A stretch of 63,436 bases of DNA, filler included, from Candidatus Desantisbacteria bacterium CG1_02_49_89 (GCA_001871075.1; 5 parts of 5 records of this genome joined end to end with filler, not necessarily neighbours in it), one strand, 5' to 3'; counted from the whole stretch's first letter, positions 35 to 60,132 are shown. Translations and numbers: made by a program. The notes: generated by a model not told the origin, from the letters alone.

Positions 35-2413
35 TCAAATGGAAGAGTGATGAATTCCAAAGAAGCCGCGCTTATGGTCTCGGTCTGGGCAGCCGGAAGC
101 AGTCCCGCATCCGGGTTTTCCGCGCTGATAACAATACGTGCGCTCCCAGACCCAGATAGTTGTGGCGCCCTGCCCGTGGATCGCTCCCTGCCAGAGCACG
201 TTCCTGACATGCGCGGACGGTATATACCCGAAATCCCTGTCCATGATAAGGTGGTTCTCGGAATTAAAGACCGGCTTGTCTGCAACAGAACGCTGCAGGT
301 CATAAGCCATATTCTCAACCTGCCAGCCGCTGCAATATTCCCCGTCTCTGGCATACCACTTGCAGCAGTCATTACCGTTGATCTGGCTCAATTCCCCGAA
401 CAGCTCAGGGTCGATCCCCCATCCTGTTGTCCCCCTGTCCGCGACCGGGCACCACATCATTATTTTCGCGTGCACGGGCAGGTCCGGTGCGACCTCATGT
501 ATAATATCAGCCATAAATTTGTGCCAGCCCGCGAACCTTTCCGCGTTAAAGACCGCCCAGTCATAATAAACAGGCTTCTCTTTTACATTTGACCCCTGGG
601 CAGGCACATCATCGAAAGAACTATAGCTGGTGCCGTAATTCTTGTTCAGCGTCCCGATACTGCCGTGTTTTTTCTGGAGCCATTCCCTCCACATATTTTT
701 TGTAAATTCGCACTCCCTTGACTCGGTATAGACCGGCTCGTTGGAAAGGCAGACGCTGTGAAGCGCCGGGTGGTCCTTGACCATGGGTATCACGAAACGT
801 ATAAAGTCTTCCAGCACCCTGCGGCTCTCAGGCGCGTCAATGCAGTATTGCAGGAACCCGCCTGAACAGCTCTTTAAATGAGGGTATTTGTTCTTCACCC
901 ACTCCGGAAAATAATGGGGGCTGAGCAGAAGGTTTATCGCGACGTTGTTCGCCTGCGCCCTGTCAGCGACTTTCAGAAAATCCTTCACAGCCGCGTCCGA
1001 GACCTTTCCCTCTGAAGGGAAAACGCTGTTAGGCCCGAACTCGATCTGGATAATGTTAATGCCGTAACCCGGAAATTTTTCAATATCCGCGCGCACCTGC
1101 CCGAATGCCCCGTACCCGGTAAAGAACACCGGGCGGGTCTCAGCCCTGCCTGAAAGGGTCTTTGTGGCTGCAATAAAACAGGGGCCTTCGATCTTTATGG
1201 AGCTGGTTGGCACATACCTTGGCACTTCCAAGACCTTGCGGCCGCCTGCGGCTATTCCGTCCAGGTCCTTTTTTGTTTCTTTAAGCATTGTATCTATTTC
1301 ATCAACCGCGTCCTGTGCCCTCTTGATCTCTCTTTTCGTTAGATCCTGGCTTACATACTTAAGAAAGTTCTCCGCCACTGTCACCGCGACTTTCTGGTAA
1401 GAACAGTCAATCCCTTTGTTCTCCAGATCCTGCGCCAGCACCTTCAAGGCATTATTGTTCTCCTCTAAGCCTGAGATCCTGGCCAGGAGCTTATCTTTCG
1501 CCTGCTCAGCGCTGTAAACAGTGAAAAAAACCTCTTCTTTTTTCTTTCCGGGTGCCCCTGCTGAAAACCTGTAAGCCCCAGCGGAAATATTTTTCGTATT
1601 TAATTGAAGCGTGGTTATGTTCTCACCCTTTTTTATTTCGATCTCCTGTGCCGGGAATTCCGCGTATTTTTTCCCTTCTTTGTCCAGAATACCGAATTCC
1701 AGCTCCGCCTCACCAAGGTCTTTAGCGCTGAGCAGACAGAACTCCGCCTCCAGGCTCTCTCCTATTAAAAATTCATTCTTATTTATTTTCAAAGAACTTT
1801 TATCAGCCGCAGGCCCGGAAAACGGCCTCGCGCGGTAAGAAATGTCCGCTATATCCCCTTCCCCTGATCTTGCCAGGCGCACTTCGTCTATCCACAAACC
1901 TTTTGTGATGCCGTCCACGTCTATCCTCAAAGGCCAGGCAGTTTCTTTACCGGTCCTGAATTCCAGCTCAAACCTTGTCCAGTCAAAGCTGCCTGAAGGA
2001 AACCCTTTTCTGACCGCCCATCCGGGACCTCCGCCGAACCAGGCATTTTCCTGGCTTTCAGCTTTCGCCCGGATAGAAAGGATGTACCCGGTATTAGGCT
2101 CCACAGGTATATCCTGCTGCAGGCCTCCGTATACATGCGGACCAAAATCCGAGGCGCTGGCAAGCCTTACTGCCCTTTTGCCGGAATAATAAACTCCATT
2201 ATCCATGCCGCAGGTTGCTTTGGCATTCCTGGAAATTCCCCAGTTCCAGGAAGCGGGCAGCTCTTCCCCTTCCTCAAAATCGGGATTCCGCACTAAATTT
2301 TCCGCGCGGATAAATTTCAATGGCAACCCTGGCTCCTTTTCTGATCCTGTCCCTTCGGCGCAAACAAGGCTCAGGCATAACACCATAAACCACAAAAAGA
2401 CATTTTTAACCAC
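35..2413 (-). CDS. Secreted GH42-like beta-galactosidase with N-terminal CBM4/9-like domain; C-terminus appears truncated or frameshifted
   Basis: Signal peptide, NLVRNPDFEE CBM-type start, LSNEP acid/base and FNSENH nucleophile-type motifs of a clan GH-A barrel. Start reassigned to GTG at 2413 (AGGGAG upstream). Confidence 0.65.
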   Translation of the reverse strand: MVKNVFLWFMVLCLSLVCAEGTGSEKEPGLPLKFIRAENLVRNPDFEEGEELPASWNWGISRNAKATCGMDNGVYYSGKRAVRLASASDFGPHVYGGLQQDIPVEPNTGYILSIRAKAESQENAWFGGGPGWAVRKGFPSGSFDWTRFELEFRTGKETAWPLRIDVDGITKGLWIDEVRLARSGEGDIADISYRARPFSGPAADKSSLKINKNEFLIGESLEAEFCLLSAKDLGEAELEFGILDKEGKKYAEFPAQEIEIKKGENITTLQLNTKNISAGAYRFSAGAPGKKKEEVFFTVYSAEQAKDKLLARISGLEENNNALKVLAQDLENKGIDCSYQKVAVTVAENFLKYVSQDLTKREIKRAQDAVDEIDTMLKETKKDLDGIAAGGRKVLEVPRYVPTSSIKIEGPCFIAATKTLSGRAETRPVFFTGYGAFGQVRADIEKFPGYGINIIQIEFGPNSVFPSEGKVSDAAVKDFLKVADRAQANNVAINLLLSPHYFPEWVKNKYPHLKSCSGGFLQYCIDAPESRRVLEDFIRFVIPMVKDHPALHSVCLSNEPVYTESRECEFTKNMWREWLQKKHGSIGTLNKNYGTSYSSFDDVPAQGSNVKEKPVYYDWAVFNAERFAGWHKFMADIIHEVAPDLPVHAKIMMWCPVADRGTTGWGIDPELFGELSQINGNDCCKWYARDGEYCSGWQVENMAYDLQRSVADKPVFNSENHLIMDRDFGYIPSAHVRNVLWQGAIHGQGATTIWVWERTYCYQRGKPGCGTASGCPDRDHKRGFFGIHHSSI

Positions 2414-2420
2414 GAATTTC

Positions 2421-2487
2421 TCCCTGCAGCTGCTGCGCAACTTAACGCAGGGACCTTCGGGTCAGAACTGAACCGATGACCCTGCGG
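2421..2487. mobile_element. 67-nt two-hairpin mini-element, copy 1
   Basis: Interrupts TAACCACGAATTTC^CACGGATTCTCACGAATTT; the uninterrupted site is at 31723-31755; homologous copies at 40632 and 54721. Confidence 0.8.
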
Positions 2488-2530
2488 CACGGATTCTCAC
2501 GAATTTTAAACTTTAGAGTAGAGCCTTAGG

Positions 2531-2579
2531 AGTAGACCCTTTAGGGTCGTTTAAATAACGGGGCTAAAGCCCCTACTCC
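2531..2579. repeat. REP-like doublet (GTAG-hairpin ... hairpin-CTAC)
   Basis: AGTAGACCCTTTAGGGTCGTTTAAATAACGGGGCTAAAGCCCCTACTCC; near-identical copy at 43767-43812. Confidence 0.8.
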
Positions 2580-2587
2580 CAAAACAA

Positions 2588-2639
2588 GCAAACCTTCCTC
2601 CATCAAGATCGGCGGATCTACGAAAAGGTTTGTCCTATC
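2588..2639. repeat. REP-like hairpin carrying a 28-nt insert (2596-2623)
   Basis: GCAAACCT[28 nt]AAAGGTTTG versus empty GCAAACCTAAAGGTTTG at 46758-46774. Confidence 0.75.
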
Positions 2640-2729
2640 CGCCCCGATGACCATCGGGGCGAGACCTCACCCCAAAGGGGCGGGCGATAAAATTCCTTGT
2701 TGTTAATTCATAACTCATAACTCATAATT
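2638..2729. repeat. Double-hairpin CGCCC module followed by AAATTCCTTG linker and 7-mer array
   Basis: TCCGCCCCGATGACCATCGGGGCGAGACCTC...; TCATAAC/TCATAAT x3. Confidence 0.7.
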
Positions 2730-2733
2730 ATTC

Positions 2734-5700
2734 TTACGGAGCAAAATATATATCTAAAAACCTAGTCGGGTCCTGCCAGTACGCGCCTGTCATATCCCCG
2801 TAAACGTATTCGTCCTCTCTCTCACCCTTCTCGTCCGTGTCACCCGTAATGAACTTGATGCCTATCACCTGGCCGGCTTTCGGCTTGAAACTGAGCTGGG
2901 CCCAGGGGATCGCGGCTTCAATGACCCAGCCGTTTGCGTTTGGCAGGGCAAGCCCTGCAGCTACGATCTTAGAGGCAATTTTAATCTTGCTTAAATCCAG
3001 GCCGGGATGCCCGGGCCCGCCGAACGCCTGCGAAACTTCCTTCAACATCGGCTTGTTGCCGGGGCCTGTGGGCGTGAACACGAATTCAAAATCATCCCCG
3101 TCGAACGTTGAGCCTGAAGCGTTCTTCCCCAGATCCAGATAAAGCCTGTAGTAGTCGCAGTGCTGGAAATCCGCTGTTGCCGCGTCGTTGCAGGAAACAA
3201 AGTCGTCAGTCACGTCAGCCGCGAAATATAAATTGTCCTTATCCCAGGTAACGTAACACACGGATGAAAAATCTTTCGGGTCCTTGTCAGGGTTTGAGCA
3301 TTGCGCAGGCATGTTCAGCGCTATCTTCTGGAAATCCTTCCACTCATCCAGGCTCGCGTCAATTTTCATTGGGGTTTTCGCTATTTTGATAATGGGAAGG
3401 TCTATTACCTGGCTTCCCTTCATCACACCTGCTTCACCCGCGTCGATCACGAAGTGAATATTCGCCGAGGCTTCAGGCGCGCTGATGTTCTCAACGATAA
3501 AGCCAAGGGTTGCCGGGTTTGCGGGCCGCAAAGGCCCGAACCCGAGGTTCGGGGGAGTTGCCTCGTATCCTTTGGGCAGGCTTATCTTCAGCTCTCCCTT
3601 TATTTCCCGGTTCAGGTTATTGGCCGCTTCTATTGAAACCAGCATCCTGTTCGCATCAAGCCTTTTTGTCTTCTGAGCGTTGATCTTCACAGGGCTTACT
3701 CCGGCTATCTTCGCTTTTTCAAGGATAGCCTTTATTTCTGCGGAGTTCCCCTTATCGCTTGAAAGGTACATAACAGCGTCTGAAAGCGGGATGCGGGTTT
3801 TGCCGTCTTTTGTTTCAGGTTTTACAGGGCCTCCCATGATATCAACTATTTTCACGCTGTCAGGCAAAGCAGATATAACCATCTCCGCGCCTTCTGAAAG
3901 GCTCCAGAGAACAAAACACGATCTGCTGCTTTTTTCAAACAAATAGCAGTATATCGAACCGCCAAGGTCCAGTTTCCCCTTGTAATCCAGGCTTTCAAGC
4001 TCCCTGGTCAGATTACAGTATGCCGCAAAAGACGGTTTCGGGGTAAAGTCATTAAAAAGCAGGCCCTGGTTATGCTCAAAGTTCTTTGGGTCAGACCCGC
4101 CGTTTGAGAACATGAACCAGAAATGCTTTTTCAACCCTTCTGCCAATCCGAGAATGTATGTGCGGGGCAGATATTTTCCCTGCAGTTCCTCTGAAATTCC
4201 CACCCAGTTGTCAGCGAACTCAGGCGCGGTTATGTTCGTGGGCCAGCCCATTTCAGTCATCCACAGGTCCTTTTCCTTTCCGTCCCCGAACTTCCTCATT
4301 ACTTCTCTTGCCTTCCTTATCGCGTCAATGTAACCCGCTGACTCAGGCGGGTTCGGGCCCGGCTGGTAGTGGTGTATCGAAGCTACGTCCATATACGGGA
4401 ACCCGCCTGCCTTGAAAACCTGGGTCATATGATTGTATTCAGTGCCGCCCAGCCCGATAACTATGCAGGCCGGGTCTGCCTTGTGCGCCTGTTCATACGC
4501 GACTTTCAATAGATCCGTGTAATCCTGCACAGACCCACCGTTAAAGAAAAGGCAGTTGGGCCAGGGCTCATTCCATATCTCCCACGCCTTGATCTTGCCT
4601 TTGTACCGGCTCACTGTCTCGAAAACATATTTTCCCCATTTATCCAGGTCCTTCGGCGGGAAATCCCCCCATCCGGCGTGCACGCCAGTGGAGATCGGTT
4701 TATAGCCTTTGGGCATCTTCCTTTCCCAGTCAGGCGGGGTTGAAAGAACAGGCATAATATTAATACCGTTCTTGTAAGATTCAACCGTCATCGCGTCGTA
4801 CCCGTCCCACACGAACTTGCCGGGCTGCTGTTCAGCCCATTTCCAGCCCATTCCCCTCCTGTCCCATTTTATGCCTGCAAGGTTACCGAGTGTGTAGTCG
4901 GACATGAAATTGACGCCGAACGGAGAATTGTAATCTAAAGCCGCTCCCTTGTTCGGGGCAATAACCGCCATCCCCATTCTTTTCTTGATCTCCTGGTTGT
5001 CTATCTTAAGGCTAAGGTTTATCCAGTAAAACCCGGGGTTGTCCATCTTCAGCTTGAAATTCGAGCCTGCCTTTCCTTCCCCGAAAACAAACTGTTTTGA
5101 ATCTTCTTTTACCTTCCTGCCGAAGAAATCTAGAATATCCGTGTTCAGGGCCATCTTCCTGCCTTTTAACGCGTCCTTGCCTGCTGCAGCCTCAACCGGC
5201 TCAGTAAGGCGCATGTTCTTCATATAGAAGGAAACTTCCTTGTCCACCGGCACCGCGTAACAAGGCACGTAGAAATTTATCTGCACCATGTTCGAGCGAT
5301 CGCCCTTCAAAGGCAGGGAGATACTCTGCCACTGGTTCGGTTTCAGGCTGCCTACGGACCTTTCAAGCAGTATCTTTTTCTGGTCAACAAACTTCGCTGT
5401 AAGGTAATCTGCGTTCTGTAAAGGATAGATCTCAAACTCAAGCTTCCCAAAATTCGACCAGTCCACAGGAGTTGTGGGGTTCCACATCCAATCAACCCAG
5501 TCCTGCGCAGGCTCTTTTACCAGATAAGTAACTTTAACGACCTGGCCCGATCCATCGGGATCCTTTTCGTACTTGCCCCAGGAATCTCCGTTCGCCATGT
5601 GCTCTTCCTGGAAAGCGTTCAGGTCCTGGAAATTTAGTATATCATCCGATGTCATGAAAGAAACGTCTAAGTTTATTTCCTCTCCGGGTTTGAAGATATT

Positions 5701-7650
5701 ATATCTGTTGTTCGTCCTTGCAATGAAAATAAGGCTTTCAAGCGGGGTCTTCGAGGCAGCTGCCTTCGCCTTCTGCGCCGCTTCAGCCGGCCCTGAACCC
5801 GTGCTCACCTTGAAATCGTCTATGGTGATCGCCCCTCCCCTGAATATGCCCACTATCAGGTTGTAATCCTCAAAATCATCAAGAGTTATCGTTATTGTCT
5901 TGCTGCCTATGCTTCCAGGCCCGTCAGTCCACTGTGTCCACCCTCTGTCAGAAGGCCCCACTCCTGCTGTGTTTGAACGCGCGAGGAAATAAAAATACGC
6001 GTCTTCGGATTTAGCCAGGACCTTGTAATTGAAGGATATTGTGTATTCCTTCCCTCCCTGAAGCAAGAGCGCGTCAGGGCTGGTGTGGAAGAACTCGTGC
6101 CAGTCATCGCTGTCATTCCGTCCGTCGCCTTTAAGCGAAGCCTTGCCTGAAATTATCTCGTTCTTGTCGCTGCTGAAAGTACCCCATTCCCTTATGTCCC
6201 AGTCTGAATCCTTTTCATTCGCCTCAAAACCGTAATTCGCGATAACTTTCATCGGCTCTTCCTTCGGTTTTGCCGGCGCTTTTACTTCTTCTTTTTTCAC
6301 AGGCGCCTTCTGCTCCTTTTCCCTGTTCTTACTCTCGTCTCTTATTACCTTTTCAATAGTTCCCTCATCAGGCTCACCTTCAAAAACAGCGAAATCATCT
6401 ATCACTATCGAGCTCTGCTTGAAGATACCGATTATAAGGTAGTAATCCGGGAACTCGTCAAGAGCGAACGTTATCAGCTTTACGCCTTCTTCCCCCGCTT
6501 CCTCGTTTATATCTGTCCAGCCCTTGTCAGCAGGGCCCGGTGCTCCGCCGATTATTGAACGGGCAAGGAAATAAGACCTTGCCCCATCCCCCTTTTCAAG
6601 TATCTTGTATTTAAAATAGACAGTATAAGTGCCGCCGCCTTCAAGGGGAAGCTTGGCAGCGTCAGTGTGGAAGAACTCGTTCCAGTCGCTTGTTCCCTCC
6701 ATACTGTTACCTTTCATAGAGGACTTGCCTGAAATAATTTCTTTTTTGTCGGTCGTTATGCCTGCTGCTGCTCCCGGAACCCATTCCTCAGGGTCTGCCG
6801 GCTCAAACCCGTAATAGCCCACAAGGCCCTTGGGACCCGGTTCTTTCTTTCCTTTTACTGCTTTCTTTGCCTGAGATTCCTTCTTCTTTTCTTTCGGCGC
6901 CTCACCGAGTTTCTTGCTTGTCTCTGAATAATACTTATCTATTTCCTCAGCTGAAAGTGGGCGGTTGTATATCTTTACCTCGTCTATCATCCCGGGAAAG
7001 TGATCTCCGATAGCAAGTGCTTCGTTATTTGTCTTCATCTCCGCGAAACCAGGGTCTGAACTGGACACCTCAACTCCGTCTATGTAAAAAACCACATTCG
7101 GCCCCGCCCCGTCAAAAGTAACCGCGATATGGTGCCAGGAATCATCCCAGGGGTTAAATCCTGAAGAGAGATCGTTAAAAGCCAATGAAGATTCTATATA
7201 GGAAGCAGACCATGATAAAACTCCGTTGTCAACGTTCAGGTATATGCCATAGTTGCGCGACTCACCGCTCCATTTCCTTATCACGTTCTGCCAGGAGCTG
7301 TTAGAGCCGGACGCCCTCATCCAGAACATGACCGTGCCTGCTTTTGTCAGGCCCAGGTCTTTCGCGTTCTTTACGTCAACGATGCTGGTTGTTCCGTCAA
7401 ATGAAAGGCAGTATCCGATCCCTTCTTTCGACCATGTTGCCCCGTTGATCGCCGCATCGTGCTTGTTGCCGGAAAGGTCAGCCGACGTCTTCCCGCTTCC
7501 TTCGTCAAAGCTCCAATACGCCACCAGTCCCTTCTCCGCTGCGTAGGTTAATGCTACGCAGGGATTTTCGAAGACCCGCCAAAGCTTTTGTGGCGGGAGC
7601 CCTGCGAAAAATACCAGCGACAAAATTGTAATGCTTATTAATTTTTTCAT
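2734..7650 (-). CDS. Giant secreted multidomain glycoside hydrolase: LamG, two tandem CBM-like repeats, GH39/GH5-like barrel, C-terminal CBM9-like domain
   Basis: MKK signal peptide; AYWSFDE...IDEVKIYNRPLS LamG; WEIWNEP and WMTEMGWP catalytic Glu motifs; WDKDNLYFAADVTDD and GWVIEAAIPW CBM9-like motifs. Confidence 0.75.
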   Translation of the reverse strand: MKKLISITILSLVFFAGLPPQKLWRVFENPCVALTYAAEKGLVAYWSFDEGSGKTSADLSGNKHDAAINGATWSKEGIGYCLSFDGTTSIVDVKNAKDLGLTKAGTVMFWMRASGSNSSWQNVIRKWSGESRNYGIYLNVDNGVLSWSASYIESSLAFNDLSSGFNPWDDSWHHIAVTFDGAGPNVVFYIDGVEVSSSDPGFAEMKTNNEALAIGDHFPGMIDEVKIYNRPLSAEEIDKYYSETSKKLGEAPKEKKKESQAKKAVKGKKEPGPKGLVGYYGFEPADPEEWVPGAAAGITTDKKEIISGKSSMKGNSMEGTSDWNEFFHTDAAKLPLEGGGTYTVYFKYKILEKGDGARSYFLARSIIGGAPGPADKGWTDINEEAGEEGVKLITFALDEFPDYYLIIGIFKQSSIVIDDFAVFEGEPDEGTIEKVIRDESKNREKEQKAPVKKEEVKAPAKPKEEPMKVIANYGFEANEKDSDWDIREWGTFSSDKNEIISGKASLKGDGRNDSDDWHEFFHTSPDALLLQGGKEYTISFNYKVLAKSEDAYFYFLARSNTAGVGPSDRGWTQWTDGPGSIGSKTITITLDDFEDYNLIVGIFRGGAITIDDFKVSTGSGPAEAAQKAKAAASKTPLESLIFIARTNNRYNIFKPGEEINLDVSFMTSDDILNFQDLNAFQEEHMANGDSWGKYEKDPDGSGQVVKVTYLVKEPAQDWVDWMWNPTTPVDWSNFGKLEFEIYPLQNADYLTAKFVDQKKILLERSVGSLKPNQWQSISLPLKGDRSNMVQINFYVPCYAVPVDKEVSFYMKNMRLTEPVEAAAGKDALKGRKMALNTDILDFFGRKVKEDSKQFVFGEGKAGSNFKLKMDNPGFYWINLSLKIDNQEIKKRMGMAVIAPNKGAALDYNSPFGVNFMSDYTLGNLAGIKWDRRGMGWKWAEQQPGKFVWDGYDAMTVESYKNGINIMPVLSTPPDWERKMPKGYKPISTGVHAGWGDFPPKDLDKWGKYVFETVSRYKGKIKAWEIWNEPWPNCLFFNGGSVQDYTDLLKVAYEQAHKADPACIVIGLGGTEYNHMTQVFKAGGFPYMDVASIHHYQPGPNPPESAGYIDAIRKAREVMRKFGDGKEKDLWMTEMGWPTNITAPEFADNWVGISEELQGKYLPRTYILGLAEGLKKHFWFMFSNGGSDPKNFEHNQGLLFNDFTPKPSFAAYCNLTRELESLDYKGKLDLGGSIYCYLFEKSSRSCFVLWSLSEGAEMVISALPDSVKIVDIMGGPVKPETKDGKTRIPLSDAVMYLSSDKGNSAEIKAILEKAKIAGVSPVKINAQKTKRLDANRMLVSIEAANNLNREIKGELKISLPKGYEATPPNLGFGPLRPANPATLGFIVENISAPEASANIHFVIDAGEAGVMKGSQVIDLPIIKIAKTPMKIDASLDEWKDFQKIALNMPAQCSNPDKDPKDFSSVCYVTWDKDNLYFAADVTDDFVSCNDAATADFQHCDYYRLYLDLGKNASGSTFDGDDFEFVFTPTGPGNKPMLKEVSQAFGGPGHPGLDLSKIKIASKIVAAGLALPNANGWVIEAAIPWAQLSFKPKAGQVIGIKFITGDTDEKGEREDEYVYGDMTGAYWQDPTRFLDIYFAP

Positions 7651-7702
7651 GTCTTTTTCCTTTCCCTTTATATCGTTCTCTTTTCCCTATTCTTCTTCCC
7701 CC

Positions 7703-7802: not shown

Positions 7803-8099
7803 CCGCATTTGAGGATATTACCGGAATTCGAATATAACGAAAGAACGTTCCTGGAATCACCCATTGATGTCCTCTGGGCCGCTTCTAAAAACAGCCGTTT
7901 TGCCGCGCGCAGGGATGAGCTGAAGATAACGGAGACGCGGAAATATCCTGTTATGGCGGATATCAGGATAGAGTGTATGGTCTGCGGGAAAGAATTCATT
8001 TTCAACGGCGGGGAGCAAAAGTGGTATAAAAAACGCGGATTGAGCCAGCCAAAACGATGTCCGGATTGCCGGGAAAGGGTGCCTGGACCGGGTATGTAG
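7803..8099 (+). CDS. Zinc-ribbon domain protein (5' partial)
   Basis: CMVCGKEFIFNGGEQKWYKKRGLSQPKRCPDCR, two CxxC pairs; frame open from the contig edge. Confidence 0.8.
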   Translation, partial: PHLRILPEFEYNERTFLESPIDVLWAASKNSRFAARRDELKITETRKYPVMADIRIECMVCGKEFIFNGGEQKWYKKRGLSQPKRCPDCRERVPGPGM

Positions 8100-8248
8100 G
8101 TGATAAGGAAGTTCTTGACGAGATCGCAAGGATTGAAAAGAAATTGTTTGCCGGTTGAACGATATGTCACATGTCAAGACCTGACACCTAAGTTTTTGGG
8201 TCTACGTCTCTGGGTTCATAAGTGTGGTTTTTTCCTGTGGTTTTTTCC

Positions 8249-8277
8249 TTGACAAAATTGATATTCTAGTGTATAAT
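8249..8277 (+). promoter_or_regulatory. Consensus sigma70 promoter
   Basis: TTGACA-17 nt-TATAAT upstream of the ATPase gene at 8334. Confidence 0.85.
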
Positions 8278-8333
8278 TATATAAGAATTATTAAGTTGTT
8301 TCTATATTACTATATTAAAATTATGAGGTTAAA

Positions 8334-51698: not shown

Positions 51699-51704
51699 AT
51701 TACA

Positions 51705-51773: not shown

Positions 51774-51791
51774 CGGTTAAAGGAAAAAAAT

Positions 51792-52769
51792 ATGGCTTTA
51801 GTTGATTTTTTCACCGAATGTCCTGATATACGGTATATAATGTACGGGGGCAAAGGCGGGCTGGGCAAAACCACCTTCTCCGCAGCCACCGCGTATTACC
51901 TGGCAAAAAAGGGGTTCAAGGTCCTTATATTCTCGGTTGACCCGCAGGCATCCTTAAGCGATATATTCGCCAGGAAGATCTTCGGCCAGGGAGAGGTTGA
52001 GATAATGCCCAATCTCTACGCCTGCGAGGTGGACGCTGACAAAAGGATAAAAGCCTACGGCGACGAGATCAGAAAAAAGATAATGGATATGTACGGGTTT
52101 GAAACAATGCCTGAAGAGATAGAGAACTACATGAAGGCGGCAAGCGCGGAGCCGGCAATGGAAGAAAGCGCCATTTTCGACGCGGTGGTTGACATAGTAA
52201 CAAAGGGCGGCTACGACTACTACATCTACGATCTGGTGCCGCTGGGCCACGCCCTCTACTACCTTTCGATGACTTCCGTGTATGACGCCTGGATAAACAA
52301 GATCTCGGCCCTGCGCTACGAGATGGGGAAATACGACAAGGTTGTCGCGACTGTCCAGAGCAAGAAGGAAACAGCAGAGGACAAGATACTGGAAGAACTG
52401 CTATATATAAAGGAAAGGATAAACGCCTCTTCAAGGATACTTACTGACCCAAAGCTGACCGCTTTCTTTTTCGTGCTGACACCCGAAGAGATGATAATAC
52501 TTGACACCGCGAAGGCGGCTGAGCTTTTCGCGAAGTTCAACGTGCCGATACGGGGGTTCATAGTGAACCGCGTCATACCGAAGAAGCTCGCCAGCGAGAA
52601 TATCCCCCAGTATCTCAGGAACAGGATACAGATGCAGGAAGGGCTTCTCGCGAGGATAGACTCGCAGTTCGGCAGTAAGGTAATGGGATGCGTCCCGGAG
52701 CTGGACAGAGATGTGCGCGGGCTTGAAATGATCGAAAAGATGGCGAAGGAAATGTTTGGCAAAAGATGA
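51792..52769 (+). CDS. ArsA/Get3-family ATPase, subunit 1
   Basis: GGKGGLGKTT, SVDP, VNR; switch II reads DLVPLGH. Confidence 0.9.
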   Translation: MALVDFFTECPDIRYIMYGGKGGLGKTTFSAATAYYLAKKGFKVLIFSVDPQASLSDIFARKIFGQGEVEIMPNLYACEVDADKRIKAYGDEIRKKIMDMYGFETMPEEIENYMKAASAEPAMEESAIFDAVVDIVTKGGYDYYIYDLVPLGHALYYLSMTSVYDAWINKISALRYEMGKYDKVVATVQSKKETAEDKILEELLYIKERINASSRILTDPKLTAFFFVLTPEEMIILDTAKAAELFAKFNVPIRGFIVNRVIPKKLASENIPQYLRNRIQMQEGLLARIDSQFGSKVMGCVPELDRDVRGLEMIEKMAKEMFGKR

Positions 52770-52848
52770 TTACGGTGATTTCAAAAGAGATTACGGTGAT
52801 TATTTAAAATTGATTGCGGTGTTTAAAACAAAACTATAAAGAGGAAGT

Positions 52849-53820
52849 ATGGATAAAATAGAAAAAAGTCTTGCAGGATACCTGAAGGAAAAGCCGAACC
52901 TTAAATACATATTCTTCGGCGGCAAAGGCGGGGTCGGAAAAACCGTGATGGCAGGGGCTTTTGCCCTTGCAATGGCAAAATTGGGAAAGAAAGTAATGCT
53001 CGCCTCCACTAACCCGGTCCACAGCCTTTCAAGCCTCCTGGACATGAAGCTTGACGGCGTCACGCAGGCGCGCGAGAACCTGGCAGTCTACGAGATAGAC
53101 ACAACCCAGACCATTGCAAGGATGAAGCAGGAAATAAGCGAGAAGATACGGTGGTTTTTGAAATTCGCGGATATTTCTCTGAAGGCGGATGATTTCGTCG
53201 AGACCGCTACACTGAATCCGGCGTTTGAGGAATCAGCCATGTTCGAGAACATGGTCAACCTGATATTTGAGAACAAATACGAAGTCTACGTGTTTGACAC
53301 AGCCCCTACCGCGAACGCGCGCAGGCTCTTAGGCATGTCAAAGGTCTATACCCTTTGGGTGAACAAGATGCTTCAAAGCAGGAAGGAAGCCACTTCTTTG
53401 CGGAAGGTGCTTTCTTTCAGGAAAAAGGAGGAGAAGGACCCGCTTATGGAATACCTGCTCTCGTTCCAGGGCAGGATCCAGCAGGCAAAAGAACTGCTTT
53501 CAAACCCTGACCTTACATCCTTCTTCTTCATCACCCTGCCGGAAGCGCTGCCTATAGCGGTCATAAAAAGGTTCATCGAGTGGTTCAGGGAATTCGGGAT
53601 ACCAGTGGGCGGCGTGATCGTGAACGAGCTGATAGAAATGAAGGAAGCCAGCGGCACCCCGGAATTCGTGCTGAACCGCGTCAAGATGCAGAAAGAATAC
53701 ATGCAGGTCATTTACCAGGATTTCCCTGATCTCCGCGCGATCGTTCCACTGTTTGAACAGGAAGTGACGGGCTTTGAAATGCTTGACCGCGTCGCCGAGC
53801 GCCTATTTTCAACCGCATAG
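52849..53820 (+). CDS. ArsA/Get3-family ATPase, subunit 2
   Basis: GGKGGVGKT, STNPVHSL, DTAPTAN. Confidence 0.9.
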   Translation: MDKIEKSLAGYLKEKPNLKYIFFGGKGGVGKTVMAGAFALAMAKLGKKVMLASTNPVHSLSSLLDMKLDGVTQARENLAVYEIDTTQTIARMKQEISEKIRWFLKFADISLKADDFVETATLNPAFEESAMFENMVNLIFENKYEVYVFDTAPTANARRLLGMSKVYTLWVNKMLQSRKEATSLRKVLSFRKKEEKDPLMEYLLSFQGRIQQAKELLSNPDLTSFFFITLPEALPIAVIKRFIEWFREFGIPVGGVIVNELIEMKEASGTPEFVLNRVKMQKEYMQVIYQDFPDLRAIVPLFEQEVTGFEMLDRVAERLFSTA

Positions 53821-53988
53821 AAATCACCACGGAGGCACGGAGGCACAGAGAAAAATCTGGCTTTGACAAATTACTGCCTTTTAACCACGAATTAACACGG
53901 ATTTCCACAGATTTTAAACTTTGTAAGCTGCATCTTCTTTTAACTTGTCCTGAAAGCCATATGCTATATGCCATGTGCTATATGCGGC

Positions 53989-54576
53989 TTATTTCCTGCG
54001 GACCTGGTACCTGATGATCGTAACATAATCCTTCGGCTTTGAAAACATCGATTCAGGGCCTTTCAGGTATTCCTCCTCGTGAAGCCCCGCTATCTTGTAT
54101 CCCTTCTCCGCGATGAACTTCTGAAGCTTTTCGATTGTAGGAGTTTCCTCACCGTAAGATCCCAGGTGCAGTATTTCCGCGACATCTCCGTATTCCCAGG
54201 CTTCTATTTTCACACCTTCAGGCGCTTTCGCGGGCAGGCTCGCGTTATCCGGCACAGGCAGGCCGTAATACCCGGTAAATTCTTCTTTTGATATGCTGTC
54301 AGGCACGATCCACCTTGCGCGCGGCGCAACCGCCTTGTTCTTGACGTACTTCATGCTGAAAAATGTCTTGTACAGCTTCCCGAAAGTTTCCTTCCCCACT
54401 TTATTTGGGTCTCCCTTCAGCTCGATCACCAGCATGTTTTGCTTCTCCATACTGCTTATCTGCGGGTCTTTCAGGGAATTATACTTGCTCAGATCCCTGG
54501 GCGGCCCTCCCATAAATAAAATACCGACCACCACCGCAACCACCGCGACAACTACCCACACCCATGCTTTTTTCAT
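53989..54576 (-). CDS. Membrane-anchored GyrI-like domain protein
   Basis: N-terminal TM helix; ILHLGSY.EE..TI, HEEEYL, TIIRY. Confidence 0.82.
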   Translation of the reverse strand: MKKAWVWVVVAVVAVVVGILFMGGPPRDLSKYNSLKDPQISSMEKQNMLVIELKGDPNKVGKETFGKLYKTFFSMKYVKNKAVAPRARWIVPDSISKEEFTGYYGLPVPDNASLPAKAPEGVKIEAWEYGDVAEILHLGSYGEETPTIEKLQKFIAEKGYKIAGLHEEEYLKGPESMFSKPKDYVTIIRYQVRRK

Positions 54577-54720
54577 TTTACCTTCCTTTCAAAAAAAAGT
54601 TTATAAAGTTTACAGAGTTTGCATAGTTTACAAAGTAGAATCCGTGCTAATCCGTGGTAATCCGTGGTTGCAAAAGTAGTTTATAGAGTTTACAAAGTCG
54701 ACAAGTAAGTATTATCTGTG

Positions 54721-54787
54721 CCGTAGGGTCATCGATTCGGTTCTGACCCGAAGGTCCCTGCATAGAGCTGCGTAGCAGCTGCAGGGG
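54721..54787. mobile_element. 67-nt mini-element, copy 3
   Basis: Sits in ATCTGTG^GATATCCGTGG. Confidence 0.8.
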
Positions 54788-54821
54788 GATATCCGTGGCT
54801 GACCGAAGGTTTCGTGCTTTC

Positions 54822-54873
54822 CTCGCCCATCCTTTCAGGTGGGCGAAGTCTCGCCCGCTGAAAGACGGGCGGA
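54822..54873. repeat. 52-nt double-hairpin module
   Basis: Identical to 37476-37527; sits in TTCGTGCTTTC^GTGATTTCG. Confidence 0.85.
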
Positions 54874-54942
54874 GTGATTTCGTTGAGCGGGAAGCGAAAC
54901 CCCCGCGTTAGCCCGATAACGGGCTGTGGGGGTGGAAATCTT

Positions 54943-55935
54943 CTACTTTTGCATTAAGAGATATGCTTCTTCCTCTGTGTCCGCTATCTTTGTCAGCACC
55001 CCGCCGCATTTTTTCCCGTCGTATTTTACCGCGCTTCTGCACAGCTCTATTATAAGTTCTCCTGACCTGGCAAACAGCACTCCTGCTTCCACCCATCCCG
55101 CCTTATCGTATTTTTCACCCAGTTTTTCCAGCAATTCTGCCTGCTTGAAGCGCAACCCGTTACACTCTTGCAAGTCCTCAGGCACAAGCGGCGGGGTCAT
55201 TCCCGCGTAAGCCGCCATATGCCTGAAGCACTCTTTATCATCCCAGCCCGGAATCTCCTTTGCCAGCTTGCGCATAGCCGGTATCCCAAGCATGCTGATA
55301 GGCGGGTTCAGCATCCTTTCTGCTTTATGCTTCAGCCCTTTTTCCGCTGCTTCCAGTTCGCTTGGCAGCTTGCCCGGCAGCTCTCGCAAGGTCCTTATCG
55401 TGTTCTTTTTGCTCATTCCCGGTACTTTAACGTCCAGCGACCTCATAAGGTCAGCGTATGCCACTTCCTGCACCTTGTCATAGGTGCAGTCATGGATGAA
55501 ATACTTTTCTTTTTCATCGTCATAGCCGACTATCAGAACGTAGTGTATCGGCACGTGGATCTTTTTATACAGCCCCGGATAATAATGCAGGTAAAACATA
55601 TCCAGGGCTCCTGCCATAACCGGTTCGCCGCTATCAATTGACTCCTTCATCTTCTGCGATACAGCTTTCCATGCCCTTCCCTCATTTGTTTCCAGCTTAA
55701 AACCCAGGATATCGCTTAATTCTTTTAGCAGGTACTTCGGGTTGTTGCCCCAGTAAACCATCATCGGCGGTTTTGCCATCTTGAACTTCAGGTAACCGAA
55801 TCCTGCCATGCCGCCTATTATGGGCAGGAGGAAATATTCGTATTCCCCGCCCTTCCACGCCAGTATGTCATATAGCCCGTTAACGTAGCAGGTTGACCCG
55901 TGCTTCGCGTGCGGCAGTTCCAGCAGTTTCTTCAT
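54943..55935 (-). CDS. BtrH-N / DUF4872-like protein (papain-like fold)
   Basis: N-terminal Cys (STC), PV....DMFYLHY, HYVLIVGYD, D. Confidence 0.75.
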   Translation of the reverse strand: MKKLLELPHAKHGSTCYVNGLYDILAWKGGEYEYFLLPIIGGMAGFGYLKFKMAKPPMMVYWGNNPKYLLKELSDILGFKLETNEGRAWKAVSQKMKESIDSGEPVMAGALDMFYLHYYPGLYKKIHVPIHYVLIVGYDDEKEKYFIHDCTYDKVQEVAYADLMRSLDVKVPGMSKKNTIRTLRELPGKLPSELEAAEKGLKHKAERMLNPPISMLGIPAMRKLAKEIPGWDDKECFRHMAAYAGMTPPLVPEDLQECNGLRFKQAELLEKLGEKYDKAGWVEAGVLFARSGELIIELCRSAVKYDGKKCGGVLTKIADTEEEAYLLMQK

Positions 55936-55995
55936 AGGCGAAAGCGACCTCTTTGCGGCCAGTGGATTTTGAGTCAGGCACGTATACCAGTTCCG

Positions 55996-56136
55996 TCACT
56001 CCGGCATTGTTAAGAAAACATCTGCGATTGCTGCATGGCCCTGCATGGCAAGGTGGGAGGCAAAAGTGTGGCGAAGGTCATGGAAGCGGAAGTTTGTAAT
56101 GCCTGCTTTCTTTAGCGTGTTTTTGATTTTCTGCAT
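55996..56136 (-). pseudogene. Tyrosine recombinase C-terminal fragment
   Basis: [25 protein letters not shown]; in-frame stop directly upstream; no catalytic Tyr segment. Confidence 0.8.
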
Positions 56137-56178
56137 TTATATTCCGCCAATTGTCCCATTGTTTCATACCGAATTTTG

Positions 56179-56278: not shown

Positions 56279-57320
56279 GCATCGGGTCCTTTATATCTCC
56301 TATAACCGTCCTGAACTGCAGGACGGGATAATTCCTTTTTAGGTCAATTTCGATAAAATAAACATCGTTCTCATTATGGTCAAGCATTATCAGGCGGGCG
56401 GGACCGAAACCCGAAACCTGCCTGCATATCTCTGAACCTATAGAACCACCCGCTCCCGTGACAAGTATCACCTTGTTCTGCAGGAAATTCCTCGCGTCAT
56501 CGCTGTTGATCTCAACCATTTCCCTCCCGAGCAGGTCCTCGGGCTTCACACTGCGCAGATCCGCGAAAGAAACGCCGCCCTGCAGGATCTTGGGGATTTC
56601 CGGGACTATCTTCAACTCGACTTTTGCCTTCTGGCAATAATTAACGATCTCCCTTATCACTTTCCCCGGAGCAGAAGAGATAGCGATTATAACCTCATTT
56701 ATGCCTTCCCTTGCAACAATCGAAGGTATGTTTTCCCTTGTTCCCAGGACCTTCAGGTTATGTATTCTTTTTCCCGTCTTCCCGGGATCATCGTCAACAA
56801 AACCAACCGGTTTGTAACCCAACTCGGGATGCTTTTTTATTTCTCTTATTACCAGTTCTCCCGTATCCCCGGCTCCGATTATCAGCAGGCGTTTTAGCGC
56901 TTTTGACGTTCTTGTCCCCATATCCTTGCGTACCCTGGGAATAAATCTTATGCCCCCGATAAAAAGAAGATTAAGGAACCAATCGATTATTATTACTGAT
57001 CTGGGAAGCAGGGGCATCCGCAAAACCAGCGGCACTTGCGTAAAGAAAATAAGGCTTATTGAAGCCAGAGAACCTATTGTAACCGCGTAAAAAATAAAGA
57101 GCGCTTCGCTCAAGCCTGCGTATTGCCATATTCCGCCGTATAACCCAAAAATGTAATATGAAAATATTTTGACAAGAATAAAGAAGGGAAGATACTTCTT
57201 AAAGGCGACGAAGTTCGGGAGCGTGATAAAATCCGGGAAACGGATCCGAAAAGCCAGCACTATCGCAAGGATTAGCAGCGCGAAATCAACTGCCACCAAC
57301 AGAAAATTTTTGTTTTTCAT
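56279..57320 (-). CDS. CapD/PglF-type nucleotide-sugar dehydratase (3' truncated)
   Basis: Four TMs, LIIGAG..G, GFVDDD, EDLLGR, VTGAGGSIGSEI. Confidence 0.92.
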
Positions 57321-57339
57321 TTTTACCTTCCGACTGCGT

Positions 57340-58137
57340 TCAACCGGCGTATCCGACCGCGTATATTACCTTGAAGTCCGGGTTCGGAGAACTGCTGCTG
57401 ATATGCACAGGCAAGGAATATTCCGCCATACCTTCCGTCACTTCGGAAGGCAGGATCTGCAGCCTGCCGAAAAAGATCCTTTTCAGTAATTCTTTCCCTT
57501 TCATGGTCCTGGGTATTATATGAAGGGAAACAGCCAGCCTTTTTATCATAGAAATGATCTTGCCGCGCGTGGTATCGTCTGTAGTCCTGAAAGCGCCGAA
57601 AAAATTCACGTTGCCGAAATTCCCAAATAATTTGTTTAGTTCCGGGACGGAGAAATATTTTGTGCTATACGGCGAAGGATTGAAATCAGTCCAGTCTTTG
57701 TTAACCGTGCAAAAAAGAAAGGCCCCGCCTTTCCTGAGAACGCGGTGCGCTTCACTGACGAATTTTTCAGGATCTTTCAGATAATAGATCGCTTCATAGA
57801 ATATAACCGCGTCAAAGCTGCCGTTATCAAAAGGCAGCTGGTGCGCATCCAGCTGCTTTATCTCGATATTTTGCCTCCCCTTGTATCGCTCCCGCGCAAA
57901 GGCAAGGTTATTCTCATCGATATCCCCGCCGATGACTTTTACTGCGTTCTTTGCAAGATACCCCAGCCCTATGCCCGAACCGCACGCAACCTCAAGGACT
58001 TCCTTACCCGTGCAGAACTGTGCGGCAAAATGGTAGCGGTGGAAAAGCCTTTCTATCTGCTCTCTTGAAGCTTTTAAGCCCGGCAGTTCGGTTACAGTAA
58101 AATATTTTGATCCCTGAACTGGTGTTTCCTGGCTCAT
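57340..58137 (-). CDS. Class I SAM-dependent methyltransferase
   Basis: RY.FA, VLEVACGSG, LPF...SFD, RVLRKGG. Confidence 0.9.
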   Translation of the reverse strand: MSQETPVQGSKYFTVTELPGLKASREQIERLFHRYHFAAQFCTGKEVLEVACGSGIGLGYLAKNAVKVIGGDIDENNLAFARERYKGRQNIEIKQLDAHQLPFDNGSFDAVIFYEAIYYLKDPEKFVSEAHRVLRKGGAFLFCTVNKDWTDFNPSPYSTKYFSVPELNKLFGNFGNVNFFGAFRTTDDTTRGKIISMIKRLAVSLHIIPRTMKGKELLKRIFFGRLQILPSEVTEGMAEYSLPVHISSSSPNPDFKVIYAVGYAG

Positions 58138-59240
58138 TTGTAGAAATCCTTTATTTCACGTATCACATATTGGACCTGTTCATCAGTGAGTTCCGGAATA
58201 TTTGGTATCGATATAACTTCTTTCGCGAACTGCTCCGTGTTTGGAAGCCTGAAATGCGATAACCCAAGCGCCTTCTGGTGATGAACAGGAATAGGATTGG
58301 AAATTATTATCTCCACGCCATTTTCCTTCAGGTATAAAGCAAGCTCATCCCTCTTATCTGCCCTGATCACATAATTCTGGTAGATATCGAAATACCTTCG
58401 GTCTGAGCCGGGGGAAGGCGGAAGCTTAACACGCTTTGTTCCCTTTAATCCTTTGTCGTAAAGTCCGGCTATATGCCTCCTTCTTTTTATCCAGCCCGGC
58501 AGGTATCTGAATTTAACGTTCAGTATCGCGGCCTGAAGGTTGTCAAGGCGGCTGGTAAAACCGTAGCATACCACTTCATCTTTCCCCTTCCTGCCGTGAT
58601 CCCTCAGGAACCGGATCTTTTCCGCAAGATCCGCGCTGTCGGTTGATACAAGGCCTCCGTCACCCGCAGCTCCCAGTATCTTTGCGGGATAAAAACTGAA
58701 ACATCCCGCAAGACCGAATGAACCGCCCTTCTTCCCGCTGAATGTCGCGCCCAGCGCCTGCGCGGAATCTTCGATAATTATCAGGTTATGTTTTTCGGCA
58801 ATTTTCATTATTTTTTCCATATCGCAGACGCGGCCGTTAAAATGAACGGGCAGAATAGCCCTTGTTCTGGGAGTGATCAACTGCTCGATCTTATCGGCAT
58901 CCATATTGAAGTCTTCACCCACATCCGCCAGTACCGGCGTTGCCCCGCTGTGGACAACGGCTTCTATCGTGGCCACGAAGGTATGCGCCACCGTGATGAC
59001 CTCATCCCCGGGCTTGATCCCCGCTGCCATAAGGCAGAATATCAAAGCGTCCGTGCAGCTGTTGACGCCGATCCCGTATTTTACGCCCAGGAATGAAGCC
59101 ATGCTATTCTCAAAATCCAGCATCTGCCGGCGCATTATCAGATCACCCCTGGAAAGCACTTCTTTTATTGCCGCGTCTATTTCTTTCTCCATGTTCTTAT
59201 AATGCAGCGGGTAATTAACAAAAGGTACTTTGTAAACCAT
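58134..59240 (-). CDS. DegT/DnrJ/EryC1/StrS aminotransferase
   Basis: IEDSAQA, SFYPAKILG..GDGG, SRLDNLQAA. Confidence 0.95.
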   Translation of the reverse strand: MVYKVPFVNYPLHYKNMEKEIDAAIKEVLSRGDLIMRRQMLDFENSMASFLGVKYGIGVNSCTDALIFCLMAAGIKPGDEVITVAHTFVATIEAVVHSGATPVLADVGEDFNMDADKIEQLITPRTRAILPVHFNGRVCDMEKIMKIAEKHNLIIIEDSAQALGATFSGKKGGSFGLAGCFSFYPAKILGAAGDGGLVSTDSADLAEKIRFLRDHGRKGKDEVVCYGFTSRLDNLQAAILNVKFRYLPGWIKRRRHIAGLYDKGLKGTKRVKLPPSPGSDRRYFDIYQNYVIRADKRDELALYLKENGVEIIISNPIPVHHQKALGLSHFRLPNTEQFAKEVISIPNIPELTDEQVQYVIREIKDFYK

Positions 59241-59251
59241 GCGATGCTCCT

Positions 59252-60016
59252 TTATTTTTTGTTTCCGACAACCGCAAATCCGATGTATGGATCAAAATCA
59301 AACCTTTCTATTTTTAACTTATTTATGCCGATAGTTTTTAGGAGCGCCATGGTCTCGCCCGGCCATATGGGATTATCCAGCTCGTCAAAAGCAATTATGG
59401 AACCTTCAGGCATCCTCGGGTAAAAATATCTTATCGCGGTTTTTGTAGGTTCAAAAAGATCGAAATCAAGGAACAGGAGGCTCACAACAAGGTGACTGTT
59501 GTCTGCGATGAACCTGGGTATCGTCTTAGACGCATCACCCTTTATCAACTGCACCTTACCTATGTGGCCCAGGAACCTGCCCGCGTCATACGTTTGTATA
59601 AGCTCGTTCAGCTCCTCAAATGAAGATGAGGAAAGCCCGCCCTTCTTTACGCCTGCGTACCTGTTCTTATCCTCGGCTTTTACCGCGGAAAAACCTTTGA
59701 ACGTGTCAAATCCGTATATTCTCCTGGTAAGGTTTACAGGCTCAAGGATCGCGCTCATCTGCGCCCATGACATCAACCCGAATCCCCGGTAAACCCCGCA
59801 TTCAACAATAGAACCCTTGACCGGAATTATCTTCTTGAATAATTCATAGAGGGCAAGCAGTCTTGTCAACTTGGGGCGTTTTACGTATTTGGTAAAATTT
59901 TCAAGCTTCACTTCGGAACCTTCGGGATTTGCGTCGAATATCCCTGCCATTTTTCGGCCCGCTTCTTTTTCTGCCTGAGATCTAAACCCGCCCTCCAAAG
60001 CAGTTTTCGACTTCAT
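59252..60016 (-). CDS. TylF/MycF-type O-methyltransferase family protein
   Basis: GSIVECGV.RG, GFDTF.GF, LDFDLFEPT, FDE, WPGET; GGAGG SD before ATG 60016. Confidence 0.85.
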   Translation of the reverse strand: MKSKTALEGGFRSQAEKEAGRKMAGIFDANPEGSEVKLENFTKYVKRPKLTRLLALYELFKKIIPVKGSIVECGVYRGFGLMSWAQMSAILEPVNLTRRIYGFDTFKGFSAVKAEDKNRYAGVKKGGLSSSSFEELNELIQTYDAGRFLGHIGKVQLIKGDASKTIPRFIADNSHLVVSLLFLDFDLFEPTKTAIRYFYPRMPEGSIIAFDELDNPIWPGETMALLKTIGINKLKIERFDFDPYIGFAVVGNKK

Positions 60017-60031
60017 GTGTGCCTCCAAAAA

Positions 60032-60132
60032 ACGTGTCAACGTATCAGCGTATCAACGTGTCAAAGTTTAAAACAGTGTTCCCGCCAAAGTAATTGGCGG
60101 GTCCGCCAATCAGTGTGGCGGAAACCTGTGGT
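60032..60132. repeat. 8-mer array plus a CCGCCA..TGGCGG double hairpin (60081-60122) in a 9-mer site
   Basis: CAGTGTT[insert]AACCTGTGGTT. Confidence 0.75.

Follow-up and report, generated by a model that had tools for sequence, protein, structure and literature searches.

The subject of this analysis is the intergenic DNA of a 63,436-nucleotide stretch of Candidatus Desantisbacteria bacterium CG1_02_49_89 (GCA_001871075.1), hereafter the window, which is rich in short tandem arrays and small hairpin modules nested in one another. The window consists of five contigs of a metagenome-assembled genome (MAG) joined by N spacers (1-7702, 7803-18830, 18931-48857, 48958-56178 and 56279-63436), and its genes encode mainly glycoside hydrolases and sugar-modifying enzymes. 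We read the intergenic DNA as a mosaic in which small non-autonomous elements of no fewer than three kinds are layered, namely repetitive extragenic palindromes (REPs) with their inverted doublets (REPINs), modules inserted at fixed junctions, and cassettes that end in arrays, and we give this reading a probability of about 55%.

Tandem arrays were called with Tandem Repeats Finder (period 6-11, at least 2.8 copies). We found 42 arrays in the window, 36 of which lie within the 7,973 intergenic bases (coding sequence takes up 55,105 bases), and 20 block-shuffles of the sequence gave 0-2 arrays each. Contigs 1 to 5 carry 1, 0, 30, 9 and 2 arrays, respectively. Among the 26 internal gaps that measure 40 nt or more, 19 have an array; when perfect hairpins with stems of 7 bp or longer are counted as well, 23 gaps have one or the other. 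The initial annotation had stated that most gaps on four of the contigs carry arrays and REP-like hairpins, and this agrees with the counts, contig 2 being the one without arrays. More than 25 different array units occur in 63 kb, in the two kinds that also bracket the cassette genes described below: the CACGGAGG, CACGAAT, TTTCGTG, AATCCGTG and CACTGA types on one side and many unrelated heptamers on the other. The units are contiguous and 7-10 nt long; with this size and no spacers, they are not CRISPR arrays, which have repeats of 20-50 nt and unique spacers. Arrays at 43379-43416 and within 37713-37938 lie in the 3' tails of long open reading frames (ORFs) of the GH32 and GH127 families, past the Pfam domains; either these ORFs are over-extended or arrays are tolerated in coding tails.

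Many arrays come as inverted pairs. By eye, from the printed regions, we counted seven gene-less inverted pairs, which make up 14 of the 36 intergenic arrays. The 9-mer pair AGTTTACAG / ACTATGTAA at 25203-25330 forms one long hairpin (z score against shuffles -5.15), and the 8-mer pair GTGTCAAC / CTGACACG at 26687-26785 is weak (z -1.47). Two further gene-less pairs lie within 51328-51773, CGTAACAT / ACGATGTT at 51328-51407 (z -5.98) and ATTGTAA / AATTTGA at 51704-51773 (z -1.30). Other inverted arrays enclose hairpins: those at 45053-45196 are 8-mer arrays around a CTCCC/GGGAG hairpin, and a 362-nt unit at 45971-46332 has inverted GCGTGTCA / CGTTGACA arrays with a common inner 20-nt stretch as its ends and several hairpins inside. 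The largest such region, 43379-44045, has inverted 9-mer arrays (43379-43416 and 44006-44045) around a REP doublet (43768-43809), a double hairpin on the minus strand (43834-43886) and a CACGGAGA array (43908-43931). No strand is assigned to these paired regions. A 17-nt interruption of the array at 25240, considered as a module family, was rejected, as the 0.71 Mb of metagenome sequence described below contains no genuine second copy of it.

Some features of the arrays suit in-place replication slippage of chance short repeats, with hairpins merely landing beside arrays that are not part of a mobile unit. Unit variants inside one array are mostly single transitions apart, and near-identical contigs differ by a 7-nt array unit and a 42-nt array block (below). 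However, the same three-unit arrays with the same ends recur at unrelated loci, the inverted pairs account for the share of arrays given above, both arms change together between species at one site, and whole array-gene-array units are inserted where relatives have no arrays. With this evidence we consider slippage an improbable origin of the arrays.

The hairpin modules were followed in the window and in a metagenome set, in which more than 116 stretches with the double-hairpin pattern were found and which amounts to 0.71 Mb once near-identical overlaps are removed (non-redundant set). The GC-rich double hairpin (DH, 50-54 nt) has 7 copies in the window and 84 in the non-redundant set; its core pattern has 8 matches in the window where 0.93 are expected, and one match, at 15169, was discarded as chance (3 mismatches). 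A GTAG-tagged double hairpin of 64-71 nt has 4 window copies and a common 17-mer that occurs three times (0.07 expected). A 27-nt loop module also has 4 window copies. REP hairpins and doublets of 23-48 nt, tagged GTAAC or GTAG, complete the window inventory and comprise GTAG plus ACCC hairpins, GTAAC plus TCAGGGC hairpins and at least seven units of a hairpin plus CTAC. The non-redundant set holds 27 GTAAC REPs, and 12 of 20 CAAACC REPs are joined with a GTAAC REP as one GTAAC...GTTAC unit. The hairpin modules that had been proposed from the sequence are thus present, as the double hairpin, the GTAG double hairpin, the loop module and the REP hairpins; the 17-nt interruption at 25240 is unique. 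In single-strand folding, 5 of 8 modules were far stabler than shuffles (z -3.25 to -5.98), and the other 3 were weak (z -1.3 to -1.9). The AGTC subtype of the double hairpin (DH-AGTC) folds as one long hairpin made of two inverted, like REPs (z -4.65). Hence, DH-AGTC is REPIN-like, and the GC-rich double hairpin is probably likewise a REP doublet.

The stretch 2422-2687 on contig 1 holds several of these modules. It contains a 64-nt GTAG-type double hairpin (2422-2485, minus strand), which on its own strand stands directly behind a AATCCGTGCC array end; a plus-strand REP doublet (2529-2579) of a GTAG plus ACCC hairpin and a GGGGC hairpin plus CTAC, with the GGGGC loop empty; a loop module in a CAAACC/GGTTTG hairpin (2597-2623, minus strand); and a DH (2638-2687, minus strand). 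On contig 3, a plus-strand cluster of CTAC-tagged REP hairpins (19897-20532) has loop modules at 19907-19933, 20283-20309 and 20373-20399. An 83-nt segment of this cluster, made up of a REP hairpin with loop module and a further hairpin, occurs twice without any difference (19897-19979 and 20273-20355). A plus-strand mosaic at 23504-23696 is composed of a GATTACGGTGATT unit, a CACAGAGG array (23534-23556), a minus-strand DH (23576-23627) and a TTCAGTGAA array (23672-23696).

There are further mosaics on the plus strand. The one at 33545-33712 has an AATTATG array and a 48-nt REPIN-like GTAAC...GTTAC doublet (33596-33643, z -5.48), together with a TTTCGTGC array that is uninterrupted (33679-33712); at 34808-35001, arrays of GGTTACT, GTTAAAG and CTGTGTTTAC are followed by a DH (34949-35001) within a CTCCGTG array; and at 36302-36466, an AGTTGTC array and TTTCGTG units precede a GTAG-type double hairpin (36396-36466). 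The region 37377-37545 has a CGTGTCAA array (37377-37410) and, in the TTTC^GTG of a TTTCGTGN array, the DH-AGTC at 37477-37527 whose folding is given above. At 40572-40739 we found a AGTTTACAA array and AATCCGTG units, a GTAG-type double hairpin (40634-40699) and then a TTTCGTGA array without interruption (40706-40739), and at 54596-54873 a AAAGTTTAC array, an uninterrupted AATCCGTGGT array (54639-54668), a GTAG-type double hairpin (54723-54788) and a DH-AGTC (54823-54873), again in TTTC^GTG. The uninterrupted arrays and the empty hairpin loops bear out the earlier statement that uninterrupted forms of the interrupted sites occur elsewhere in the window.

The modules sit at fixed positions. 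For DH-AGTC (34 of the 84 DH copies), the left flank ends in TTTCC in 32 of 34 copies and the right flank begins with GTG in 31 of 34; the junction is TTTC^GTG, and excising the module rebuilds one TTTCGTG unit. An 8-bp target duplication was considered for DH-AGTC and rejected, since the two flanking units have the same variable eighth base N in no more than 6 of 19 copies (expected agreement 0.43). Hence, the flanks of DH-AGTC are array context and not a target duplication. Other DH subtypes sit in CGTGTAA, CACTGAA, GTTAAAG, GTCCACG, GATGCAC and GAGATTG arrays. All seven GTAG double hairpins lie behind a YGTGMC array end, which is exactly AATCCGTGCC in five. As for the loop module, 19 of 19 copies lie in a hairpin loop, bounded by complementary arms of 7 bp or more and preceded in every case by TTT or TTC; at least six different stem sequences serve as hosts, and these are also found with a plain four-base loop. 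The CCCGCC hairpin has two settings, behind GTAG or within the loop of the CCCTGC hairpin. Very small repeats are thus nested both in tandem arrays and in each other, and the reproducible positions described in the initial annotation recur across copies, as does its finding that target duplications are not evident, none being seen at DH-AGTC or at a 46-nt module (below).

Fixed positions could also belong to intercistronic RNA or DNA signals, such as terminators, mRNA-stabilising or RNase III stems or regulator sites, which selection would retain and gene conversion would keep alike; their repetition would then stem from a common function instead of transposition. As such signals would, the modules occupy the space from a stop codon to the following Shine-Dalgarno site, and intergenic heptamers of Beggiatoaceae upstream of start codons are taken as possible translational signals in the available text of PMC4679880. 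Against this, Rfam at gathering scores gave no family in the window (a tRNA search was also negative), dozens of unrelated loci carry near-identical copies, and DH-AGTC is unbiased in orientation relative to genes (7:11). In favour of signals, the loop module itself contains a perfect AAGGAGG (19907-19933, 20283-20309, 2597-2623 and 15 further loci), and 12 of 13 co-directional cases have it on the sense strand; in the copies read, no start codon follows at the usual distance downstream. In two species a DH lies in frame within the C-terminal part of an orthologous TolB-like gene (L037:1438-1500 and L074:12030-12110), with differing hairpin sequences.

We next turn to differences between strains and species. 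A 46-nt hairpin module is present in a metagenome contig (L135) and missing from the 99.98%-identical window between 46686 and 46687, with exact ends and without duplication. This presence/absence speaks against the module being a retained signal. The 46-nt family has five copies, and the left flank ends in TTTTAG in three of the four that are readable. Alignments of contigs that are 98-100% identical contain four internal indels of 6 nt or more, which consist of one 7-nt array unit, a tandem duplication of 14 nt, an array block of 42 nt and a stretch of 20 nt. Between two species with genes ~92% identical (L037 and L074), the outer arrays of an intergenic region are retained, as the signal explanation would have it, and the inner modules are wholly different. 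Two Chloroflexota species (genes 86-90% identical) have different array modules at the same three sites, and at one of these both have complete hairpin modules of the same build with units that differ in both arms. Logan contigs of four sequencing runs, compared with the window, gave no allelic empty sites; they break at repeats, and their joints are paralogous module neighbours. Hence, the proposal that modules are presence/absence insertions holds for one allelic 46-nt case and for whole-module differences between related species, and the Logan contigs add no allelic case to it.

Candidate enzymes for the REPs were found outside the window. Six Y1_Tnp genes were found in sibling contigs of the same population; one is a fragment, and the five full ones score Pfam E 2e-8 to 2e-15. 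Each full gene, read from the printed sequences, has an HxH motif and a Y-x-x-x-N-P motif. One Y1 gene (L096) has window-type GTAAC REPs on both sides, some carrying the loop module, and another (L063) is flanked by the GTAG-ACCC REP that is also present in the window at 2529-2579. REPs that flank transposase genes are a further point against retained signals. The hairpins concerned are extragenic palindromes with a GTAG-like unpaired tag, and their inverted doublets fold as one hairpin; in the available text of PMC3116915 and PMC3733652, Y1 genes with their own REPs at the flanks are the arrangement of REP/REPIN elements and their REP-associated tyrosine transposases (RAYTs). The GTAG/GTAAC hairpins of the window are therefore ordinary REP/REPIN elements. 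This alters the picture of one new system with several trans-acting enzymes that had been drawn from the sequence: the GTAG/GTAAC part is standard, and enzymes of the HUH type exist in the population's sibling contigs and not in the window, which had correctly been described as lacking a cognate transposase. The earlier idea that such enzymes write hairpins into each other's products is conjectural. From shared REPs and samples, the Y1 contigs may come from the same genome as the window. Clustering 723 ORFs all-against-all gave no large selfish family besides the six Y1 members. The NCBIfam scan covered the first 150 of the 416 non-window ORFs of 90-420 aa, and the rest were covered by tblastn with eight queries (five Y1, two GxxExxY and one four-helix-bundle).

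Arrays like those of the window bracket genes elsewhere. We examined loci from four genomes of other lineages (G001, G002, G004 and G005: a WOR-3 MAG, one further MAG, a Chloroflexota MAG and a Phycisphaerae MAG). By eye, 13 of 14 GxxExxY loci have inverted arrays on both sides, with units that share a CACNG-like core (CACAGAG, CACGAAT, CACGGAT, ACAGGAT and CGCAGAG), and all 11 four-helix-bundle loci have inverted heptamer or octamer arrays on both sides, each with its own unit. A strict automatic bracket test was positive for 10 of 20 cassette genes vs 3 of 33 neighbouring genes (Fisher p 0.002). Among the sibling contigs, one (L038) has a GxxExxY gene and a four-helix-bundle gene, each within inverted arrays, and a second (L053) has a GxxExxY gene with array-like units upstream only, the locus stopping right after the gene. 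L197 has a further four-helix-bundle ORF between terminal inverted repeats. At L038:8590-8889, a ~100-nt unit with CACGAAT arrays stands in three tandem copies directly upstream of the GxxExxY gene. The residues D...ExK are invariant in 15 of 15 GxxExxY proteins, as expected of active PD-(D/E)XK nucleases, which these proteins may thus be. The initial annotation had suggested that similar motifs flank four gene families in other genomes; this fits GxxExxY and four-helix-bundle genes and has little support in the other two, the single DUF559 gene seen having CCCCC/GGGGG hairpins at its flanks and no arrays, and two small GIY-YIG genes showing no clear pattern (one with long inverted repeats, one among tRNA genes).

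The cassettes differ between relatives at one site. At a syntenic site of WOR-3-like genomes, the gap is 33-133 nt long and array-free, with at most a plain hairpin, in six of the nine loci displayed from relatives, and from coordinates seven further relatives have gaps of 48-122 nt. The same site holds a GxxExxY cassette in G001, a four-helix-bundle cassette in G018 and another gene in G010. Hence, the whole array-gene-array unit was inserted, and the arrays are its ends. Such insertions into short array-free sites count against both slippage and retained signals, although the ordinary hairpin and T run that WOR-3-like relatives have at the G001 cassette site would suit a signal. All cassettes examined sit between protein-coding genes and not in a 23S rRNA helix, the place from which RNase III excises rRNA intervening sequences. 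The window itself has gene-less arm pairs and solo arms only, and no gene-bearing cassette.

Repeats of this kind could arise as an artefact of metagenome assembly or binning, by collapsed repeats or chimeric joins. The Logan contigs break at intergenic repeats, and over window positions 25150-45149 their summed depth is 10-27 fold above gene level in the bins with 33154-33820 and 37156-37822; contig 2 is array-free and may be from another organism. However, independent JGI metagenome contigs match contig 3 over 11-13 kb and contig 4 over 5 kb, modules included, at 99.9-100% identity, 24 groundwater/aquifer runs contain 75% or more of the words sampled from a 9.9-kb stretch, and the same architecture occurs in unrelated genomes. 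Hence, the sequence is real and from an abundant aquifer population, and the rise in depth means that the modules in those bins are highly multi-copy in the community; we regard an assembly artefact as extremely unlikely. The word search of sequencing runs found the 9.9-kb stretch absent from RNA runs. In a species-genome collection, a module 21-mer had 0 matches and the closest CstA relatives were only 43-53% identical, so the window has no close reference genome. For the phylum, an Omnitrophota affinity (protein atlas, signal peptidase) and the type IX secretion genes present in sibling contigs are leads only.

Taken as a mechanism, the mosaic would build up in layers. Y1 HUH (RAYT-like) transposases, whose genes lie in other parts of the genome or of the population, would act in trans to copy the GTAG/GTAAC hairpins and their inverted doublets. 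The DH, the 64-71-nt GTAG double hairpin, the 27-nt loop module and the 46-nt hairpin would be inserted, free of duplication, into an array unit or a single-stranded loop; a fixed-junction pattern is expected of single-strand 'peel and paste' insertion beside a short target, and HUH chemistry is the step that we infer from it. The 7-10-mer arrays would be the terminal inverted repeats of mini-cassettes like the intervening sequences (IVS) of 23S rRNA. Full cassettes, in other lineages and in sibling contigs, carry a gene for a four-helix-bundle protein or a putative GxxExxY PD-(D/E)XK nuclease between the arms; gene-less forms dominate the window, and unit slippage would then change copy number. 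The assignment of enzymes to modules is inferred, and the cassette proteins may act on their own arrays.

Several observations weigh against this mosaic, some of them suiting retained signals instead. The loop module is oriented 12:1 and the GGTC subtype of the DH 14:2 relative to genes, which RNA-level selection could explain as well as strand-specific insertion. DH copies at one junction vary in their inner stems with pairing kept, which suits old elements or structural selection better than recent copying, and the flanks of GGTC-subtype DHs share a 6-mer in only 18 of 50 copies (control mean 7.3, maximum 15). Hairpin modules yielded a single allelic insertion, the remaining indels being mainly changes of array units or duplications. 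Half of the cassette genes fail the automatic bracket test. Pfam (50 ORFs) and tblastn with the eight queries revealed no transposase, GxxExxY or four-helix-bundle gene in the window. No Y1 gene was seen with CGCCC-type double hairpins, loop modules or arrays at its flanks, and the link between the window and the Y1 contigs is formed only by shared REP sequences and shared samples. With the evidence on both sides, we hold retained signals to be rather unlikely as the explanation; a role as intercistronic stems and mobility may coexist.

The remaining arrays and neighbouring features are as follows. On the plus strand, three adjoining arrays (AGAGTCAC, TTTTGCA and TTACACG) lie at 39370-39511; a TTATGAG array and a GTAAC REP hairpin (48475-48497) at 48426-48497; a CACGGAGG array right behind a stop codon, a CACGAAT/CACGGAT array (53882-53915) and an ATATGCT array at 53821-53985; a AACGTATC array, then two CCCGCC/CCGCC hairpins, at 60031-60139; and a DH between convergent genes at 29594-29647. 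In the region 41800-42358, a MazF/PemK-like toxin ORF (42005-42358) has an antitoxin-like short ORF before it, and both lie within a 531-nt gap rich in GATTACGGTGATT units. BRO-N and DUF4143 AAA ATPase proteins are frequently linked to mobile DNA; a BRO-N domain protein is encoded at the start of contig 3 (18932-19783) and a DUF4143 AAA ATPase on contig 2 (8334-9650). Also on contig 2, 29 nt at 8161-8189 match, reversed, the stretch directly upstream of the Y1 fragment (L136) and resemble repeats behind a Y1+DnaA_C gene (L095), and six N inside an ORF (15893-15898) may be a masked or scaffolded spot.

Beyond this window, it is possible, though we advance it tentatively and think it less likely than not, that short intergenic arrays, including the heptamer arrays of several phyla, are the ends of widespread undescribed mini-cassettes. 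Autonomous forms would carry only a four-helix-bundle or GxxExxY protein that recognises its own units, and gene-less derivatives would occupy the intergenic DNA. REP-type hairpins would land in the arms and loops of these derivatives, producing a multi-level nested mobilome driven by several enzymes. If true, this would join the four-helix-bundle 'IVS protein' and GxxExxY families, the heptamer arrays of cyanobacteria, Beggiatoaceae and others, and very small nested repeats in one testable picture; it would name candidate proteins and substrates for bench tests, account for the poor assembly of intergenic DNA in many uncultured lineages, and give strain-tracking markers. The cassette link across phyla is the part most worth following. 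A literature search, supplements excluded, found no published tie of tandem arrays to four-helix-bundle or GxxExxY cassettes, nor such cassettes inserted between protein genes, and the link of window-type arrays to the inverted ends of these mini-cassettes is new here.

Among known systems, IS1397 targets REP loops, and IS200/IS605 elements move by single-strand transposition. The modules of the window may resemble both in their insertion in palindromic units or beside a short fixed target without duplication; unlike them, the inserted units here are 27-71 nt and non-coding. The short tandem repeat (STRR) arrays of cyanobacteria are a second parallel, and Elhai et al. in 2008 reportedly described tiny dispersed repeats nested in the tandem heptamers of heterocystous cyanobacteria. 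By that definition, the cyanobacterial repeats are alike in that very small repeats lie in short arrays and in each other with no transposase nearby; they differ in that our host is a groundwater bacterium, the modules are 27-71 nt and the arrays are tied to inverted pairs and gene cassettes.

The closest match for the hairpins is REP/REPIN-RAYT. In the available text of PMC3116915 and PMC3733652, this system has short extragenic palindromes with GTAG-like tags, inverted doublets that form one hairpin and Y1 genes among their own REPs, as well as some intragenic copies and several families per genome; the same features occur here, the Y1 genes among their REPs in sibling contigs and not in the window. 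In contrast to those descriptions, the tags here are partly GTAAC or lacking (CGCCC family), copies stand at fixed spots within tandem arrays, loops carry a further module, and no RAYT was seen beside the CGCCC double hairpin.

For the arrays, the nearest case is the TAACTGA heptamer, which forms intergenic direct repeats in Beggiatoaceae, Cyanobacteria and Bacteroidetes with no mechanism evident in the available text of PMC4679880. There too, 2-6 units are nearly all intergenic, often right before start codons, and patchy over phyla. The same portion of PMC4679880 describes one dominant unit, as opposed to the more than 25 here, and a single inverted repeat, and a term search of it found no link to a four-helix bundle.

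The cassettes are most similar to the 23S rRNA IVS, in which, according to the available text of PMC4990558, an S23p four-helix-bundle ORF lies between inverted repeats. The likeness covers a small four-helix-bundle ORF, terminal inverted repeats able to form a long stem, a sporadic distribution and suspected mobility. Unlike the IVS so described, the cassettes here lie between protein genes and have inverted ends made of 7-8-mer tandem arrays, a second cassette class carries a putative PD-(D/E)XK nuclease, and gene-less forms are abundant.

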